In this document: one piece after another, positions 11,217 through 56,116 of the stretch
Numbering within the stretch: position 1 is the first letter of the stretch
Layout: every line of letters begins with the position of its first letter
DNA from: Thermodesulfobacteriota bacterium
GTDB lineage: Bacteria > Desulfobacterota > BSN033 > UBA1163
Direction of reading: 5' to 3'
Length of the DNA: 64,000 nt
Assembly: GCA_026415035.1 (NCBI GenBank)
Contig: JAOAHX010000014.1
Coordinates: 11 to 64,010, forward strand
Notes under the pieces: model-generated
What the model was told of the DNA's origin: nothing
Databases searched by the model: none
The model's input: the letters and a program-made list of their open reading frames with translations, nothing else
Program-made: the position numbers and the translations under genes

Positions 11217-11249
11217 ATGCACAATCTTAAAAAAGAGGGAGGTCTTTTT

Positions 11250-12395
11250 ATGGATTTTTCATTCACGGAAGAGCAGATCGCGATGAGGGATATGGCCAAG
11301 AATTTTGCAGAGAAGAAGATCGCTCCCACCATGGAAGAGGATGAGAAGGAGCATCGATTTCGAAGGGAGATCGTCAAAGAGATGGCCAGCCTCGGGTTCT
11401 TCGGCTGCATCGCGCCGGAGAAATATGGCGGAAACGAGACGGGGTATATCGCGGCCTCGATCATGGCCGAAGAGATCGCCAGGGTCTCACCCTCCTGGGG
11501 CCTTCCCTTCAATCTCCAGATGAATTCTATCCAGTCGGTCCTGCTCCAATTCGGGACCGAATCGCAGCGAGAACAGTACATCCCTAAATTGATCAATGCC
11601 GATCTGCTCGGCTGTTTCGCCATCACGGAGCCCAATTCCGGTTCGGATGTGGCCTCGATGAAAACGGCTGCTGAAGAGAAAGAGGATGGGTTCATCCTCA
11701 ACGGTAGCAAGATGTGGATCTCGGGTGTACCGGTGGCCGATCTCGGGATCGTCTATGCCTATACCGATCGATCCCTCAAACATCGGGGGATGTCCGCCTT
11801 TTTGGTCGATATGCACCTGCCTGGAGTGACCCAGAAGGCGATCGAGACGAAATTGGGGCTTCACTGCGCCCCCACCGGCGAGATCTATTTCGACAACGTC
11901 AAGCTCCCGAAGGAGAGCCTGGTGGGTCAAAAAGGGGATGGGTTCAAGATCTGCATGTACATGCTCGACAATACGAGGCTCTCCTGCGCTTCCAGGGCCG
12001 TCGGCGTGGCCAGGGCCTGTAAGGAACATGCGATCCGTTACGCCAACGAGAGGGAGCAGTTCGGCCAGCCCATCGCCAATTTCCAGATGATTCAAGAGCA
12101 GATCGCAGAGATGGTGGTCGAGGAGGAGGCGGCGAGGCTGCTGGTCTACCGGGCGGCCTGGAACCGTGATCGGGGGCAGCGCAATACGGTGGAGATCTCC
12201 TGCGCCAAACTCTTTGCATCCGAGGTGGCGGTCCGAGCGGCCAACACCGCCGTCAAAATCTTCGGTTCCTACGGTTTTTCGAGCGAATATCCGGTGGAAC
12301 GTTTTTATAGGGATGCGAAATCCTTCCAGATCGTCGAGGGAACCTCGAACATCCACAAGATGATCATCGCAAGAAATGCCCTGGGCCTGAAGTAG
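11250..12395 (+). CDS. Acyl-CoA dehydrogenase (short-chain/glutaryl-/alicyclic-CoA type)
   Basis: MDFSFTEEQ start typical of ACADs, FAD/substrate motifs (GSKMWISG, catalytic-base region FQIVEGTSNI); the ORF-track start at 11217 lies inside the promoter, so I reject it. Confidence 0.9.
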   Translation: MDFSFTEEQIAMRDMAKNFAEKKIAPTMEEDEKEHRFRREIVKEMASLGFFGCIAPEKYGGNETGYIAASIMAEEIARVSPSWGLPFNLQMNSIQSVLLQFGTESQREQYIPKLINADLLGCFAITEPNSGSDVASMKTAAEEKEDGFILNGSKMWISGVPVADLGIVYAYTDRSLKHRGMSAFLVDMHLPGVTQKAIETKLGLHCAPTGEIYFDNVKLPKESLVGQKGDGFKICMYMLDNTRLSCASRAVGVARACKEHAIRYANEREQFGQPIANFQMIQEQIAEMVVEEEAARLLVYRAAWNRDRGQRNTVEISCAKLFASEVAVRAANTAVKIFGSYGFSSEYPVERFYRDAKSFQIVEGTSNIHKMIIARNALGLK

Positions 12396-12520: not shown

Positions 12521-12742
12521 ATGCCTATGGGAACACCTGTGACGGTACCAATGGTAGGGAAGATCGTCTCCATCTCCGTGAAGGTCGGGGATCAGGTGAA
12601 AGAGGACGACCAGGTGGCGGTCCTTGAAGCGATGAAGATGGAGATGCCCATCGTGGCCCCGGTGAGTGGGACGATCCAGGAGATCAAGGTCGCACCGGGC
12701 CAGGAGGTCGAAGCTGAAGCGGTCATCGCCATCATCGGATGA
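12521..12742 (+). CDS. Small biotin carboxyl carrier protein (biotinyl domain only)
   Basis: 73 aa; EAMKM biotin-attachment motif; RBS AGGAGG 6 nt upstream of ATG 12521. Confidence 0.75.
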   Translation: MPMGTPVTVPMVGKIVSISVKVGDQVKEDDQVAVLEAMKMEMPIVAPVSGTIQEIKVAPGQEVEAEAVIAIIG

Positions 12743-12767
12743 CCCGGAGGGGGCGGGAGTCGGAGCG

Positions 12768-13223
12768 GTGGAGATCGATTTTTTATCGAAGGTCACCATA
12801 CGGCCCATGAACCCGGGAGACATCGGGGCGATTGTGGCGATCGACGAGAAGGTCATCGGAAAGTCGAGGCCGGATTACTGGAAGAAGATGGTCCCCGAAA
12901 ATCCACCGCATCCCATGCTCTCTCTGGTGGCGGAATTTGAAGGAAAGGTCATCGGGTTCGTTCTCGGAGAGGTGAGCGGGTGGGAATTCGGGGTTCCCGA
13001 TACGGTGGGATGGCTCACTATCATCGGCGTCGATCCCGACTTCCAACACAGGGGGGTGGCGAGAAAGTTGAGCCAGGAGTTCATCAAGAATTTGAAGGCG
13101 ATGAATGTCCGGGTCGTCTATACCTTGGTCAATTGGAATGATTGGGACCTCCTCAAATTCTACAAGGAGATGGGGTTCACCCGTGGGGGGGATATGATCA
13201 ACTTAGAATTGAGGCTCGATTAG
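12768..13223 (+). CDS. GNAT-family N-acetyltransferase
   Basis: GNAT core (VIGFVLGEV...HQHRGVARKL...KEMGF); start uncertain (GTG 12768 after GGAGGGGGCGGGAG, or ATG 12807). Confidence 0.6.
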   Translation: MEIDFLSKVTIRPMNPGDIGAIVAIDEKVIGKSRPDYWKKMVPENPPHPMLSLVAEFEGKVIGFVLGEVSGWEFGVPDTVGWLTIIGVDPDFQHRGVARKLSQEFIKNLKAMNVRVVYTLVNWNDWDLLKFYKEMGFTRGGDMINLELRLD

Positions 13224-13247: not shown

Positions 13248-14003
13248 ATGGGAAGACTTGAAGGGAAAGCGGCGGTGGTGACGGGCGGAGGGAGGGGGAT
13301 CGGCAGGGCCGTCTGCCTCGCCTTCGCCAAAGAAGGGGCGGACGTGGTCGTCAACTATGCCTCGCAGGAGAAACCGGCCCAGGAGGTCGTCGCGCTGATC
13401 GAGCAGATGGGGCGGAAAGGGGTTGCGGTGAAAGGAAATGTGGCCGTCAAGGCCGATGTGGAGAAGATCATCCATACCTGCATCGATCACTTCGGGAAGA
13501 TCGATATCCTGGTGAACAATGCGGGGGTGTCCAGGCCCGGCATGCTCCACAAGATGACCGAGGAACAGTGGGACGAGGTGATCGACATCCAGCTCAAAGG
13601 CCCCTTCCTCTGTACTCAGGTGGCGGCCAAATTCATGATGGAGAGGAAGTACGGAAGGATCATCAACGTCACCTCCTCGGCTGGGCTCTGGGGGACCAAA
13701 GGCCAGATCAACTACAGCGCCGCCAAAGGAGGGGTTGTGGCCCTGACCAAATCGGCGGCCAGGGAGCTGGCGGGTTATGGGATCACTGTCAATGTGATCC
13801 AGCCCGGTTACGTCAATACGGAGATGTTCGAACGGGTGAAGTCGGATCCCAAGCTTTTGGAGATCTATACCGGCCGGATCCTGCTCGGTCGTTTTGCAGA
13901 TCCGGAGGAGGTGGCCCCGGCCTTCGTCTTTCTGGCCTCAGACGAGGCCAGTTATGTGACGGGTCAGCTCTTCTGCATCGACGGCGGCCTGGGGATGACC
14001 TGA
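13248..14003 (+). CDS. Short-chain dehydrogenase/reductase (FabG/BadH-like 3-hydroxyacyl-CoA dehydrogenase)
   Basis: TGGGRGIGRA Rossmann motif, NNAG, YSAAK catalytic tetrad, 251 aa. Confidence 0.85.
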   Translation: MGRLEGKAAVVTGGGRGIGRAVCLAFAKEGADVVVNYASQEKPAQEVVALIEQMGRKGVAVKGNVAVKADVEKIIHTCIDHFGKIDILVNNAGVSRPGMLHKMTEEQWDEVIDIQLKGPFLCTQVAAKFMMERKYGRIINVTSSAGLWGTKGQINYSAAKGGVVALTKSAARELAGYGITVNVIQPGYVNTEMFERVKSDPKLLEIYTGRILLGRFADPEEVAPAFVFLASDEASYVTGQLFCIDGGLGMT

Positions 14004-14063
14004 GGGTGAAACGAGACGGGGATTAAAATTTCGGAAGTCATTATCTCAAAGGGGGTGACGCGC

Positions 14064-15173
14064 ATGTCAGTACCGGACAGGATTGAGACGTGGCAGATGG
14101 TTCAACCGACTTCGAAGAACAAAGAGACGGGTGAGGTGATCCCAGGAAGACTGGAGAAGGTCTCCCTTCCCGTACCTCCTCTGGCCGCCGACGAGGTCCT
14201 GGTGAAGGTGGCAGGCTGCGGGGTTTGCCATACCGACCTCGGCTATTTTTACGACGGCGTTCCGACGGTCCAGAAGCCTCCCCTGACGCTCGGCCATGAG
14301 ATCAGCGGGACGGTGGTGGCGGGCGACGAGAAATGGATCGGCAAAGAGGTGATCGTCCCGGCGGTGATGCCCTGCCGGAAATGCCTGCTCTGCAAGACCG
14401 GCAGAGGGAACCGTTGTTTGGTCCAGAAGATGCCCGGAAACAGCCTCGGGATATACGGGGGTTTTGCGAGCCACATCCCGGTCCCCTCGATCGACCTCTG
14501 CGAGGTCCGGAATCGAGGGAACATCCCGTTGGAGCATTTGGCCGTGGTGGCGGATGCCGCCACCACACCCTACCAGGCCGCCAAACGGGCCGACCTCCAG
14601 CCCGGCGACCAGGTCATCATCATCGGGGTGACGGGAGGCGTCGGGGTCTACATGGCCCAGACCGCGAAGGCCCTGGGCGCGAAGACGGTGATCGGGATTG
14701 CGCGAAATCCTGCCAAACTCCAGCGGGCCCTGAAGTACGGGGCGGACTTCGTCATCAGCTCGCAGGACAAGCAGATCAAGGATATTCGGAACGAGTTTCG
14801 AGAGATCTGCAAGAAGAACCATCTGGAGGCGGGGTTCGGCTGGAAGATCTTCGAGGTGAGCGGTACGAAGGCGGGCCAGGACCTGGCCTTGGAGCTTCTC
14901 TCCTTCACCGGGAAGCTGATCGTGGTCGGCTTCGGGATGGCGAAGAATGAGTACATGATCTCCAGGTTGATGGCCTTCGATGCCGAGATCATCGGGACCT
15001 GGGGATGCCTCCCCGAATATTACCCCATCGTGCTGGACATGGTCCTTTCGAAGAAGATCGACATCGAGCCCTTCGTGGAGACGAGGCCGATGAGCCAGAT
15101 CGCCGCGGTCTTCGAGGAGGTTCACAAGGCCGGCTCACCGGAGCGAAGGATCGTTTTGACCCCCGATTTTTAA
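14064..15173 (+). CDS. Zinc-dependent medium-chain alcohol dehydrogenase family protein
   Basis: GCGVCHTDL...GHEISG zinc-ligand motifs, GVTGGVG NAD fold; ATG 14064 after AAGGGGGTG (ORF-track GTG 14055 also possible). Confidence 0.8.
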   Translation: MSVPDRIETWQMVQPTSKNKETGEVIPGRLEKVSLPVPPLAADEVLVKVAGCGVCHTDLGYFYDGVPTVQKPPLTLGHEISGTVVAGDEKWIGKEVIVPAVMPCRKCLLCKTGRGNRCLVQKMPGNSLGIYGGFASHIPVPSIDLCEVRNRGNIPLEHLAVVADAATTPYQAAKRADLQPGDQVIIIGVTGGVGVYMAQTAKALGAKTVIGIARNPAKLQRALKYGADFVISSQDKQIKDIRNEFREICKKNHLEAGFGWKIFEVSGTKAGQDLALELLSFTGKLIVVGFGMAKNEYMISRLMAFDAEIIGTWGCLPEYYPIVLDMVLSKKIDIEPFVETRPMSQIAAVFEEVHKAGSPERRIVLTPDF

Positions 15174-15232
15174 GGGAGGAGAAGCTCAAGGTCGGTTCAA
15201 TTTTTTGAATCCACAAGAAAGGAGAGGAGACG

Positions 15233-16204
15233 ATGAACGGAAAGAGCAAGTACGAGAAGATTTTCAGGGGAAGGGATCCCAAGGAGTTCGGATTCGAAGA
15301 GATCATCTATGAGAAAAAGGATTGGACGGCCAAGATCACCCTCAACCGACCCCAACGTTACAACGCCTATACCGGGACCGAGCTGGCGGAGATCTGCGAA
15401 GCCCTCCACGACATCACCGTCGATGACAAGGTGGCCGTGGGAATCATCACCGGCGCCGGCGACAAGGCCTTCTGCACGGGCGGCGACGCAGGGACCTATT
15501 CGACCATCTATCCGGAGCGGCCCCACGAATTCTACATGTGGTGGGAATTCTACGAAAGGATGCTCTACATGATCCGGACCTGCGGAAAACCGATCATCGC
15601 CCGGATCAACGGCGTGGTGGCCGGAGGGGGAAATGAGATCAACCTGGCCTGCGACATCTCGATCGCCGCGGAGCATGCCCGCTTCATCCAGCCCGGGACC
15701 CGGACCGGGAGCGTCTCCGCCGGAGGCGCCACCCAGTGGTTGCCCTTGGTGATCGGCGACAAGAGGACCCGCTGGATGGTGATGGTGGGCGACGAGATCA
15801 ACGCCCAGACGGCCCTTCAGTGGGGCTTGGTCAACGAGGTCGTCCCCTACGAGAAGCTGGACGAGGCAGTCGACAAGGTCGTCGAGAAGTTGGTGGATAA
15901 GTTCCCGGATTGCATGAGATACACCAAAGTTCAGTGCAACTTCTGGACGGACCTGGCCTGGACGACCTTCCAGCATGCGAGGGACTGGCTCTCCGTCCAC
16001 TATGCGACCGCCGAGCCGATCGAAGGCTTCAGGGCCTTCCTCGAAAAGCGAAAGGTCGACTACCGCGCCATGAGGCAGAAGGACATCGCGGGCAAGAGCC
16101 GGAGCTATATCTTCGGACCTCCGATGAAGTCCTGCGCCAAATGCGGAACGAAGTATCTGCCCGATGAGTTCAAATTCTGTGGGGTCTGCGGGGCAGCGAT
16201 TTAG
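15233..16204 (+). CDS. MenB/BadI-family crotonase (2-ketocyclohexanecarboxyl-CoA hydrolase-like) fused to C-terminal zinc ribbon
   Basis: Strong similarity pattern to the BadI/MenB family (NRPxxxNA, GAGDKAFCTGGD, KPIIARINGVVAGGGN, FLEKRKVDYRAM); extra 40-aa tail CAKCG-x11-CGVCG. Confidence 0.8.
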   Translation: MNGKSKYEKIFRGRDPKEFGFEEIIYEKKDWTAKITLNRPQRYNAYTGTELAEICEALHDITVDDKVAVGIITGAGDKAFCTGGDAGTYSTIYPERPHEFYMWWEFYERMLYMIRTCGKPIIARINGVVAGGGNEINLACDISIAAEHARFIQPGTRTGSVSAGGATQWLPLVIGDKRTRWMVMVGDEINAQTALQWGLVNEVVPYEKLDEAVDKVVEKLVDKFPDCMRYTKVQCNFWTDLAWTTFQHARDWLSVHYATAEPIEGFRAFLEKRKVDYRAMRQKDIAGKSRSYIFGPPMKSCAKCGTKYLPDEFKFCGVCGAAI

Positions 16205-16213
16205 GATCGGACG

Positions 16214-16576
16214 ATGGCCTTGAGAGAGTCGAAATACCGAAGCGACCTCGGATTCTACAAGGAATTCGATCAGGATCGGGTCGTCCTGCCCGTTAAAGAG
16301 GATGGGGGTCTCTACTATGTGGAGATCCCCTCCCACCTTCGAAATCGTTTGGAACTCGTCGTGGGAAGTCGGTTGAAAGGGTGGCTGGAGAAGGTCCAGC
16401 CCAGAAAAGGCAAGGCCCAGACCCTGAAGAGGAAGATCGATTGGGAGATCGTGGGATACTGGCACGAGCTCCACATCCCCCAAGACCTGGTCAGGAAGTT
16501 GAAGCTGAAGGACGGGGATCAACTGACCTTGAAGTTCGAGCGGGTGGTCAATTACGGAAACGAGATCGAGATTTGA
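16214..16576 (+). CDS. Tandem AbrB/MazE-like (swapped-hairpin) domain protein
   Basis: Two repeats resembling AbrB-N/SpoVT (IPSHLRNRLELVVGSRLKGWLE and IPQDLVRKLKLKDGDQLTLKFE); 120 aa; 10 nt after upstream gene. Confidence 0.45.
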   Translation: MALRESKYRSDLGFYKEFDQDRVVLPVKEDGGLYYVEIPSHLRNRLELVVGSRLKGWLEKVQPRKGKAQTLKRKIDWEIVGYWHELHIPQDLVRKLKLKDGDQLTLKFERVVNYGNEIEI

Positions 16577-16612
16577 GGGTCCTTTTTGAACCTTAGAAAA
16601 AGGGTCTTTCGA

Positions 16613-16653
16613 TAGGGAGGTGATATGGCCTCCCTATTTTCTTTCTTCTTTCC
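16613..16653 (+). terminator. Rho-independent terminator
   Basis: TAGGGAGG-tgatatgg-CCTCCCTA hairpin followed by TTTTCTTTCTTCTTTCC. Confidence 0.7.
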
Positions 16654-16683
16654 TTCCCAATCTCATCTCATGAGGTGATCGCC

Positions 16684-17451
16684 ATGGCATTTAAATGGAT
16701 TCAGACGGAGTTGAAGGAAGGGGTGGCCTATCTCACCCTGAATCGCCCTCCCCTCAACTGGCTCAATCTCGAAATGATGGAGGAGATCAATGCCTATCTC
16801 GAAGGGCTAAAAGAGGAGAAGAGCCTCAAGCTCCTCGTTGTCCAGGCGGCGGGAAAGGCCTTTTCGGTGGGGGTCGAGGTGGCCGAGCACTTAGGGGACC
16901 TTGGCCCGAGGATGATCGAGACCTTTCATCGCATGTTCCGCCTGATGGACGAGTTAAAGGTCCCGACCCTTGCGATCGTCCATGGCTCCGCCCTTGGCGG
17001 AGGATGCGAACTCGCGGTCTATTGCGATATGGTCCTGGCCACGGAGAAGGCCAGGTTCGGACAGCCTGAGATTCAGGTGGGGGTCTTCCCCCCGATTGCC
17101 GCTTTGGTCTTTCCGAGGATGATCGGCCGGAAAAAGGCCATGGAGCTGATCCTATCGGGCGAGACGATCAGCGCGCAGGAAGCCCTGGCGATCGGCCTGG
17201 TCAACCGGGTCGTTTCGGAAGCCTCGCTGGCCGAGGAGGTCGATAAGTTCATCGGGAAGTTCAAGAGTCTGAGCGGAATCGTCCTGAAGCTGACCAAAGA
17301 GGCGACCCTTTCGGGGTTGTGCGACGAGCCGGCAAAGGGGCTGAAGACCATCGAGCAGATCTATCTCGATCGGCTGATGAAGACCGAAGATGCCACCGAA
17401 GGGCTCCAGGCCTTCTTGGAGAAAAGGAAACCCCTTTGGAAGGACCGCTGA
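16684..17451 (+). CDS. Enoyl-CoA hydratase/isomerase (crotonase) family protein
   Basis: Crotonase fold motifs (LTLNRPPLN, AAGKAFSVG, GSALGGGCELAVYCD, oxyanion hole), 256 aa from MAFKWIQ. Confidence 0.85.
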   Translation: MAFKWIQTELKEGVAYLTLNRPPLNWLNLEMMEEINAYLEGLKEEKSLKLLVVQAAGKAFSVGVEVAEHLGDLGPRMIETFHRMFRLMDELKVPTLAIVHGSALGGGCELAVYCDMVLATEKARFGQPEIQVGVFPPIAALVFPRMIGRKKAMELILSGETISAQEALAIGLVNRVVSEASLAEEVDKFIGKFKSLSGIVLKLTKEATLSGLCDEPAKGLKTIEQIYLDRLMKTEDATEGLQAFLEKRKPLWKDR

Positions 17452-54314: not shown

Positions 54315-54728
54315 TCACACCTTGACGATTTCGAACGAGAGCTGGCCGTCCTCGTAGGTGACCGGTTTGACCGAGACCTCCATCCCTACCCGGATCTCCT
54401 CGGGCTTCAATGCCTTGGTCACCCTGGCAAAGAGTTTGAGACCGTCGCCGTAATCGACCACGCCCATCGTATAGGGAGGGTCGGCTTCAAAGCCAAAGGG
54501 GGCATAGTAGGCCGTGGTGAAGGTCTCGAGCCTACCTTTGGGTGGCATCTCGAACCAGTCCATCTGATTGGAGAAGCACTTGGCGCAGTCGGCCCTCGGT
54601 GGAAAGTACCTGGCCCCACACCCTTTGCAGATCGTCCCTTTGATCTTTCCTTCTGCGAGAAAATCGACAAATTTGGCGGTCTTGGTGGTCGCGGTGAAGC
54701 TCTTTCTCCCGAATTTTTCGAACCCCAT
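54315..54728 (-). CDS. DUF35 zinc-ribbon/OB-fold protein (thiolase partner)
   Basis: CKGCG-x10-CAKC rubredoxin-like ribbon followed by OB-fold; 3-nt gap after thiolase. Confidence 0.8.
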   Translation of the reverse strand: MGFEKFGRKSFTATTKTAKFVDFLAEGKIKGTICKGCGARYFPPRADCAKCFSNQMDWFEMPPKGRLETFTTAYYAPFGFEADPPYTMGVVDYGDGLKLFARVTKALKPEEIRVGMEVSVKPVTYEDGQLSFEIVKV

Positions 54729-54731
54729 AAC

Positions 54732-55913
54732 TTACCTCCCCAGGATGGTGACATTTCCGTAGAGCCCGACGCCCCCGATGTTGTGCACCACACCGATGTC
54801 GGGCTCGCCAGGAACCTGCATGGGGCCCGCTTCCCCCCGAAGCTGCAGCACGATGGTTCGGATCTGAGAGCCGCCGGTGGCCCCGATGGGATGTCCTTTT
54901 GAAAGGAGACCGCCGTCCACATTGACGGGGATCCTCCCCTCTTTGTAGGTGGCCTTTTCACGGATGAGCTGTTTGCCTTCTCCGATGGGTGCGAATCCTA
55001 AACCTTCGTAGGCCATGATCTCGGCAATGGTGAAACAGTCGTGAACCTCGGCCACCTTGACGTCCTTGGGAGTGATGCCTGCCATTTTATAAGCCTGGGC
55101 CGCTGCAGCATGGCCCACGCTCAGGCCTTGGGTAAAATCGGGACGGGCGGCCATGTTGACCGACTCCGAAGCCGTGCCGATGCCCAGGATCCAGACCGGT
55201 TTCTTGGAAAAGATTTTGGCTTTCTCGGCATTGGCGAGGATGATGCAGGAGCTTCCATCGGCATTGGCGCAGCAGTCGCCCACCCGGAGGGGCCAGGCCA
55301 CCGGGCCCGCCATTTTGGCCTCGGGATCGCCCGGTTTGAAATCCTCGGGCTTGACGGGCTTGCGGTAAACGGCCCGATCGTTGATCACACCATAGACCGA
55401 CGATTTGATCCTCACGTTCATCAGGTCCTCATGGGTCAGCCCGTGTTTGGCCATATAGGCCTGGGCATAGAGGGCATAATAGGCGGGCATCATCGTTCCG
55501 AAAGGCGCCTCCCACTGGATGTCCGCCCCCCGACCCATTCGCTCCTGGGATTCGGCCGACGAGATCTCGGACATCTTCTGGAATCCGAGGACGACGACCA
55601 CGTCGTGGAGTCCGGCCTTGATCATGCTATAAGCCACCTTGACCCCGGTGCTGCTTGAAGAGCAGACCGTTTCCACATAAAGGGTGGGTTGAGGGATGAG
55701 CCCAAGATATTCTGCAAGCACACCAGCCGGGGAGCGCTGCTTGTCGTATTCGGGAGCCGAGCAGAAGACCGAGGCATCCACGTCCTTCTGGGTAATGCCC
55801 GCATCGTTCATGGCTTCCCTGAAGGCCTCGAAGGCCAGCTCACGGATCGACCCTTCATACCCCCTCACAAACGAGGATTGACCCACACCGATGATGGCTA
55901 CTTCCTTTTTCAT
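54732..55913 (-). CDS. SCP-x-type thiolase (thiolase-fold condensing/cleaving enzyme)
   Basis: Thiolase fold with active Cys in VETVCSSSSTGV, C-terminal HNIGGVG; start MKKEVAII after upstream in-frame extension. Confidence 0.88.
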   Translation of the reverse strand: MKKEVAIIGVGQSSFVRGYEGSIRELAFEAFREAMNDAGITQKDVDASVFCSAPEYDKQRSPAGVLAEYLGLIPQPTLYVETVCSSSSTGVKVAYSMIKAGLHDVVVVLGFQKMSEISSAESQERMGRGADIQWEAPFGTMMPAYYALYAQAYMAKHGLTHEDLMNVRIKSSVYGVINDRAVYRKPVKPEDFKPGDPEAKMAGPVAWPLRVGDCCANADGSSCIILANAEKAKIFSKKPVWILGIGTASESVNMAARPDFTQGLSVGHAAAAQAYKMAGITPKDVKVAEVHDCFTIAEIMAYEGLGFAPIGEGKQLIREKATYKEGRIPVNVDGGLLSKGHPIGATGGSQIRTIVLQLRGEAGPMQVPGEPDIGVVHNIGGVGLYGNVTILGR

Positions 55914-56116
55914 CGAAGGCCTCCCTTCCGTGATCAATTGGTGTTCTAACATAATCGAGAGATCCGTTCCTTGTCAAGGGTGGAAATCGAACGAAAGAAT
56001 AAAAGGATCGGTCATTTGACATTGGCGGAACAGGCCTTTTAAGATGGATAGAAAGACCGAAGAGGGACGTTCGGGGCAGTTCGGGTCCCGATCCTTAATA
56101 ATTGAAAGGAAGGACG

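Follow-up and report, generated by a model that had tools for sequence, protein, structure and literature searches.

The analysed window, a stretch of 64,000 nucleotides from contig JAOAHX010000014.1 of a Thermodesulfobacteriota bacterium related to Syntrophorhabdus, contains a crotonase gene whose product ends in two pairs of cysteines, which raises the question of what reaction this enzyme catalyses and what a C-terminal zinc ribbon might contribute to it. The reading we favour, with a probability of roughly 0.55, is that the protein is an Oah-type ring-cleaving hydrolase in an ancestral form, with a structural zinc ribbon docked on its catalytic domain. Judged by sequence, the gene, here termed ECHZ, belongs to a large clade of Oah-like crotonases that had not been named before, and its product would most likely be the ring-opening hydrolase of anaerobic benzoate (benzoyl-CoA) breakdown.

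A crotonase gene with a conserved Cys4 tail

ECHZ is an intact open reading frame with an ATG start, encoding 323 amino acids followed by a stop codon (Table 1); an exact-sequence look-up found no exact copy of the protein in the contig collection. The Pfam model ECH_1 matches residues 32-278 above its gathering score (E 5e-53), which places the protein in the crotonase/enoyl-CoA hydratase superfamily (PF00378). Invariant motifs of the catalytic domain are GGGNE, which contains Glu135, and GS-V-x-x-GGATQWLP; Ser162 occupies the position of the catalytic Asp of MenB and BadI. The domain is followed by a linker consisting of a helix (residues 277-285) and a conserved stretch of the type G-x-S-x-E-F-x-W-G-P, which reads IAGKSRSYIFGPP in the window protein and LRQKLAAGQSWVGP in canonical Oah, and then by the ribbon S-CAKC-GTKYLPDEFKF-CGVC-GAAI, so that the protein ends in ...SCAKCGTKYLPDEFKFCGVCGAAI.

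Table 1. Features of ECHZ and of its surroundings in the window
Feature	Position	Strand	Basis or remark
Acyl-CoA dehydrogenase (ACAD), closest to glutaryl-CoA dehydrogenase PDB 3MPI	11217..12395	+	378 bits
GNAT acetyltransferase, inside the cluster	12666..13223	+	beside the family in 11/85 loci
SDR, candidate 3-hydroxyacyl(pimelyl)-CoA dehydrogenase	13248..14003	+	profile; SDR within 6 kb in 40/85 loci
Had	14055..15173	+	TIGR03201 485 bits, cut-off 338.65; PDB 7QUY/7QUL (Had) 318 bits, next match 100 bits
Shine-Dalgarno-like AGGAGAGGAG	15220..15229	+	ends 3 nt before ATG; read from sequence
ECHZ, whole gene (Oah-like crotonase with C-terminal zinc ribbon)	15233..16204	+	ORF, Pfam, homologues
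Crotonase catalytic domain, residues 21-278	15293..16066	+	
Linker, residues 279-299	16067..16129	+	alignments; pLDDT 92
Cys4 zinc ribbon, residues 300-323	16130..16201	+	profile, alignments; pLDDT 96-97
Small ORF, 120 aa, two AbrB/SpoVT-like half repeats	16214..16576	+	starts 10 nt past the stop codon
Terminator-like hairpin, 11-bp stem and T-rich tail	16611..16638	+	consensus match only
Second crotonase with two catalytic Glu (GGGCE...QPE), candidate Dch-like dienoyl-CoA hydratase	16675..17451	+	TIGR03189 166 bits, cut-off 292.5

The initial annotation had recognised a rubredoxin-like ribbon behind the FLEKRK helix, and this ribbon is a genuine and conserved Cys4 element, although two details need adjustment: 49 residues rather than about 40 follow FLEKRK (residues 269-274), and the spacing of 11 residues applies from Cys304 to Cys316, with 10 residues lying between CAKCG and CGVCG. 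The pattern CxxC-x11-CxxC, a pair of CxxC knuckles separated by about 11 residues, is conserved across homologues far beyond chance (x11 in 206 of 207 distinct sequences), with the family consensus C-x2-C-G-[AT]-K-x-[LI]-P-x2-F-x-[FYH]-C-G-x-C-G. In an alignment of 90 sequences C301, C304, C316, C319, P310 and G317 are invariant, at a mean column identity of 59%. The tail matches Zn_Ribbon_1 at residues 301-322 (E 1.6e-4; 21.8 bits, gathering score 25) and a further generic zinc-ribbon model, DZR. Hundreds of genomes of bacteria and archaea, Asgard archaea included, encode the tail, and the ribbon is retained down to 38% identity.

A tail of this kind could in principle be an artefact, arising when a frameshift joins the gene to a small ORF or through strain-specific read-through, and among the 120 best database homologues, which come from bacteria and archaea and are 52-94% identical, two do lack the motif. 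Both exceptions, however, look like copies of the same DNA with a frameshift; the other 118 carry the tail, and so does each of the 80 loci obtained from GTDB species genomes, with frame and spacing unchanged. Compared with a 99%-identical protein of a Syntrophorhabdus MAG, the tail shows 18 synonymous and 3 non-synonymous differences, and with a pN/pS of about 0.04-0.16 it is, by its substitution pattern, under purifying selection. Conservation, constant frame and spacing, and pN/pS thus refute the artefact, whose probability we regard as negligible, and eliminate both outcomes that the initial annotation had set against its own claim, namely a frameshift and absence from close homologues. 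Several lineages, namely Oah, P0130, P0132 and P0138, no longer have the ribbon, so that it is not indispensable.

Family placement and gene context

The initial annotation had also assigned the enzyme to the MenB/BadI family. MenB (DHNA-CoA synthase) and BadI (2-ketocyclohexanecarboxyl-CoA hydrolase) both carry out retro-Claisen or Dieckmann chemistry on beta-oxoacyl-CoAs. The assignment is correct as far as the crotonase fold and the MenB/BadI branch are concerned, but the protein fails the equivalog models of MenB (TIGR01929, 174.5 bits against a cut-off of 342.7; NF005637, 180.6 against 380), of BadI (TIGR03210, 185.1 against 467.6; other clade members score 190-204) and of canonical Oah/BamA (TIGR03200, 170.7 against 464.45, the best stretch covering model positions 38-212 of 360). 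As a positive control for TIGR03200, the verified canonical Oah P0178 scored 630 bits against the cut-off of 464. The nominally best NCBIfam match is therefore BadI, about 15 bits above Oah. The GSFD motif with the catalytic Asp reads GSVS in the window protein and GSVA in the family, and no men or bad gene context surrounds the window gene. Orthology to MenB or BadI was rejected because of the scores below cut-off, the missing Asp and this context.

Membership in an Oah-like clade in the wider sense is indicated by the shared motifs GGG[NQ]E, GS..GGAT..LP and DY..LR...A.G.S..GP, with Glu135 invariant, and by the neighbour-joining tree, in which the family and verified Oah group together, apart from MenB/BadI-like and generic crotonases. 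In this tree, calculated by a simple method from 255 columns and with a limited sampling that includes two Oah representatives only, Oah lies inside the most recent common ancestor of the ribbon-bearing sequences in 96 of 100 bootstrap replicates and is nested in the ribbon clade in 94, whereas the MenB/BadI-like P0135 falls outside; monophyly of all ribbon-bearing sequences receives 32% support.

The gene context also agrees with this placement. Had is the immediate upstream gene, at a distance of 60 nt, and a candidate Dch is encoded downstream (Table 1); the small ORF in between is conserved 3' of the gene only in close Desulfobacterota relatives. A search of the window for benzoyl-CoA reductase gave no hit. 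In a non-redundant set of 85 loci, drawn from Asgard archaea, Thermoplasmata, Acidobacteriota, Chloroflexota, Dormiibacterota, Bacillota and further groups, genes found within 6 kb of the family encode BcrC/BzdN (47 loci), BcrA/D (45), BcrB/BzdO (44), Dch-like enoyl-CoA hydratases (37) and Had-like alcohol dehydrogenases (34). Where the sequence extends at least 6 kb to either side of the gene, as it does for 34 loci, a class I benzoyl-CoA reductase is present in 26 cases, and one neighbouring BzdO passes TIGR03191 (700 bits, cut-off 448). The family is thus associated in genomes with Had, Dch and benzoyl-CoA reductase. Canonical Oah was found in none of the 85 loci; the other crotonases there are all two-Glu hydratases of about 255 amino acids, none of them of Oah length. 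Some loci, arranged as BcrCBAD-ECHZ-CoAT-CoAT-SDR, have no Had or Dch nearby, so that the substrate we infer for the enzyme may differ between subclades.

The anaerobic benzoyl-CoA pathway includes a modified beta-oxidation, in which Dch hydrates the dienoyl-CoA and Had oxidises the 6-hydroxy intermediate. The ECHZ protein would most likely carry out the third step, and the neighbouring SDR and the glutaryl-CoA-dehydrogenase-like ACAD would act on later products of the pathway. The gene bamA/oah is a widely used marker for anaerobic aromatic degraders. In the benzoyl-CoA-reductase operons examined from Asgard archaea, Thermoplasmata, Acidobacteriota, Chloroflexota, Dormiibacterota and others, no candidate for ring opening other than the ribbon-bearing form is present, and since this form also scores far below the Oah model, surveys relying on canonical bamA or TIGR03200 may undercount benzoyl-CoA metabolism. 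Public names of family members such as 'naphthoate synthase' or 'enoyl-CoA hydratase' are misleading.

Role of the ribbon and alternative explanations

AlphaFold2 models of the window protein and of an archaeal member reach a pLDDT of 92-97 in linker and ribbon and a pTM of 0.90, and confidently predict that both are packed on the enzyme's own body; these were monomer runs, and the packing on the core is read from confidence values and weak covariation. Mean-field direct coupling analysis (190 sequences, Meff 71) recovered plausible contacts within the core, and the pairs between tail and core (95-311, 66-299, 98-290, 49/52-300) are weak and serve as a hint only. We infer that the C-terminal 24 residues most likely bind one structural Zn2+ in their Cys4 ribbon, that the conserved linker would hold the ribbon to a catalytic domain, be it that of the same chain or that of a neighbour in the oligomer, and that the ribbon would fix the C-terminal lid helices without taking part in catalysis or redox chemistry. 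No solved structure of a ring-cleaving hydrolase, ribbon-bearing or canonical, was found, and the ribbon offers a defined, testable module for structural work on these enzymes.

The same enzyme might instead use its ribbon as a docking module that tethers Had, Dch, thiolase/DUF35 or benzoyl-CoA reductase in a substrate-channelling complex. Small zinc ribbons frequently mediate protein contacts; DUF35 serves as scaffold for the thiolase/HMG-CoA synthase complex of archaea, and in ChsH2 a DUF35 domain recruits Ltp2. Crotonase-DUF35 fusions such as P0195 exist, the operon linkage with Had, Dch and benzoyl-CoA reductase genes is tight, and 21 of the 85 loci have a thiolase gene within 6 kb. Yet only 4 of the 85 loci have DUF35 that close, none of the neighbours recurs at every locus, and the monomer model assigns linker and ribbon a fixed place on the protein at pLDDT values above 90. 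The conserved non-Cys residues (the G after each CxxC, P310, F313) fit the Zn_Ribbon_1 profile at 21 of 23 positions, and such a fit to a generic profile suggests upkeep of the fold rather than a partner surface. The tail furthermore lacks an OB domain, and neither zf-ChsH2 nor OB_ChsH2_C of Pfam matched it at E up to 0.1, in a search for which the window ORF at 54315-54728 and P0195 served as positive controls. We therefore consider docking rather unlikely. Its most specific version, binding to the stand-alone DUF35 with thiolase in the window (54315-55952) as suggested in the initial annotation, finds no support: the pair lies 38 kb from ECHZ, and a link to it was rejected for want of any co-localisation signal. 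More speculatively, the ribbon might be an ancestral docking handle for a metabolon of Dch, Had and hydrolase (possibly with the reductase or thiolase/DUF35) in strict anaerobes and Asgard archaea, or a Cys4 redox or O2 sensor that switches the pathway off, with Oah/BamA as a derived form without ribbon; we regard this proposal as doubtful.

The enzyme could also be a hydrolase of the BadI type. Its substrate would then be saturated 2-oxocyclohexane-1-carboxyl-CoA or some other beta-oxoacyl-CoA, alicyclic or substituted, and the ribbon would again be structural. This would agree with the nominal best match (185 bits for BadI, 171 for Oah), with the adjacent BadH-like SDR (205 bits) and ACAD, with the frequency of SDR genes around the family and with several operons that contain an SDR without Had. 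However, the Ser or Ala in place of the catalytic Asp of BadI and MenB, the invariant hydratase-type Glu135 shared with Oah, a cut-off-passing Had immediately upstream and the nesting within the clade of Oah and not of P0135 all speak against it and make this substrate improbable. Finally, a precedent within the superfamily is AccD, the acetyl-CoA carboxylase carboxyltransferase beta subunit, whose N-terminal Cys4 zinc ribbon has been implicated in nucleic-acid binding and for whose zinc finger autoregulation has been proposed (PMC2831308). Similar binding of nucleic acid by the ECHZ ribbon, through which the enzyme would control expression of its own operon, seems very improbable: AccD belongs to a different subfamily and carries its ribbon at the other end, the ECHZ consensus ribbon has a net charge close to zero and acidic residues at conserved positions, a conserved element in RNA or DNA was not found, and the ribbon is predicted to pack on the enzyme body. 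We thus retain the reading of an Oah-type hydrolase with a structural ribbon.

Comparison with known systems

The ribbon itself resembles generic zinc ribbons (Zn_Ribbon_1 PF13240, DZR PF12773, DUF7577 PF24463), which have the same two CxxCG knuckles at the same spacing; the tail covers positions 2-22 of the 23 in the Zn_Ribbon_1 profile, and other family members match the same models. All these matches remain below the gathering scores (17-24 bits, thresholds 25-28), which is why the public annotation lists ECH_1/ECH_2 only. In contrast to these stand-alone ribbons, that of ECHZ forms the C-terminal end of an enzyme, to which a conserved linker joins it. DUF35/ChsH2 likewise ties a rubredoxin-like zinc ribbon to CoA-ester enzymes and in P0195 to a crotonase, but combines ribbon and OB domain, whereas the ECHZ tail comprises 24 residues without an OB fold. 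AccD shares with ECHZ the crotonase superfamily and a Cys4 ribbon, but differs in subfamily, in chemistry and in the N-terminal position of the ribbon, which is C-terminal in ECHZ. In the literature searched, AccD was the sole relevant case of a ribbon on Oah or crotonases. The statement that such extensions are not described accordingly holds there for the ECHZ family but not for the superfamily, given AccD (PMC2831308) and database entries for crotonase-DUF35 fusions (P0195).

MenB and BadI provide the best matches to the core (MenB PDB 2IEX, E 8e-46; BadI, 185 bits), but have a catalytic Asp in GS[FV]D where the ribbon family has Ser or Ala, and possess neither Glu135 (MenB reads GGGHV) nor the ribbon. 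Canonical Oah, which is 31% identical to the window protein, belongs to the same crotonase branch, with GAGDKAFCTGG, GGG[NQ]E (a single hydratase-type Glu) and GS..GGAT..LP in common, and occupies the same operon position beside Had and Dch. It differs by an insertion of about 50 amino acids after the 'VVP' strand, which the window protein lacks; the ribbon-bearing P0121 and P0126 have a shorter insertion at this site. The linker DY..LRQK.AAG.S..GP is common to P0178 and the window protein, and Oah stops where the ribbon begins, ending about 10 residues past the 'GP' with no cysteine ribbon. A search of the tail against NCBIfam gave no Oah match that would make the Oah C-terminus a ribbon homologue, and only a marginal match to a 4-Cys prefix. 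The suggested polarity runs from a ribbon-bearing ancestor to canonical Oah: the ribbon would be ancestral to the clade, and textbook Oah/BamA a derived branch that lost it.

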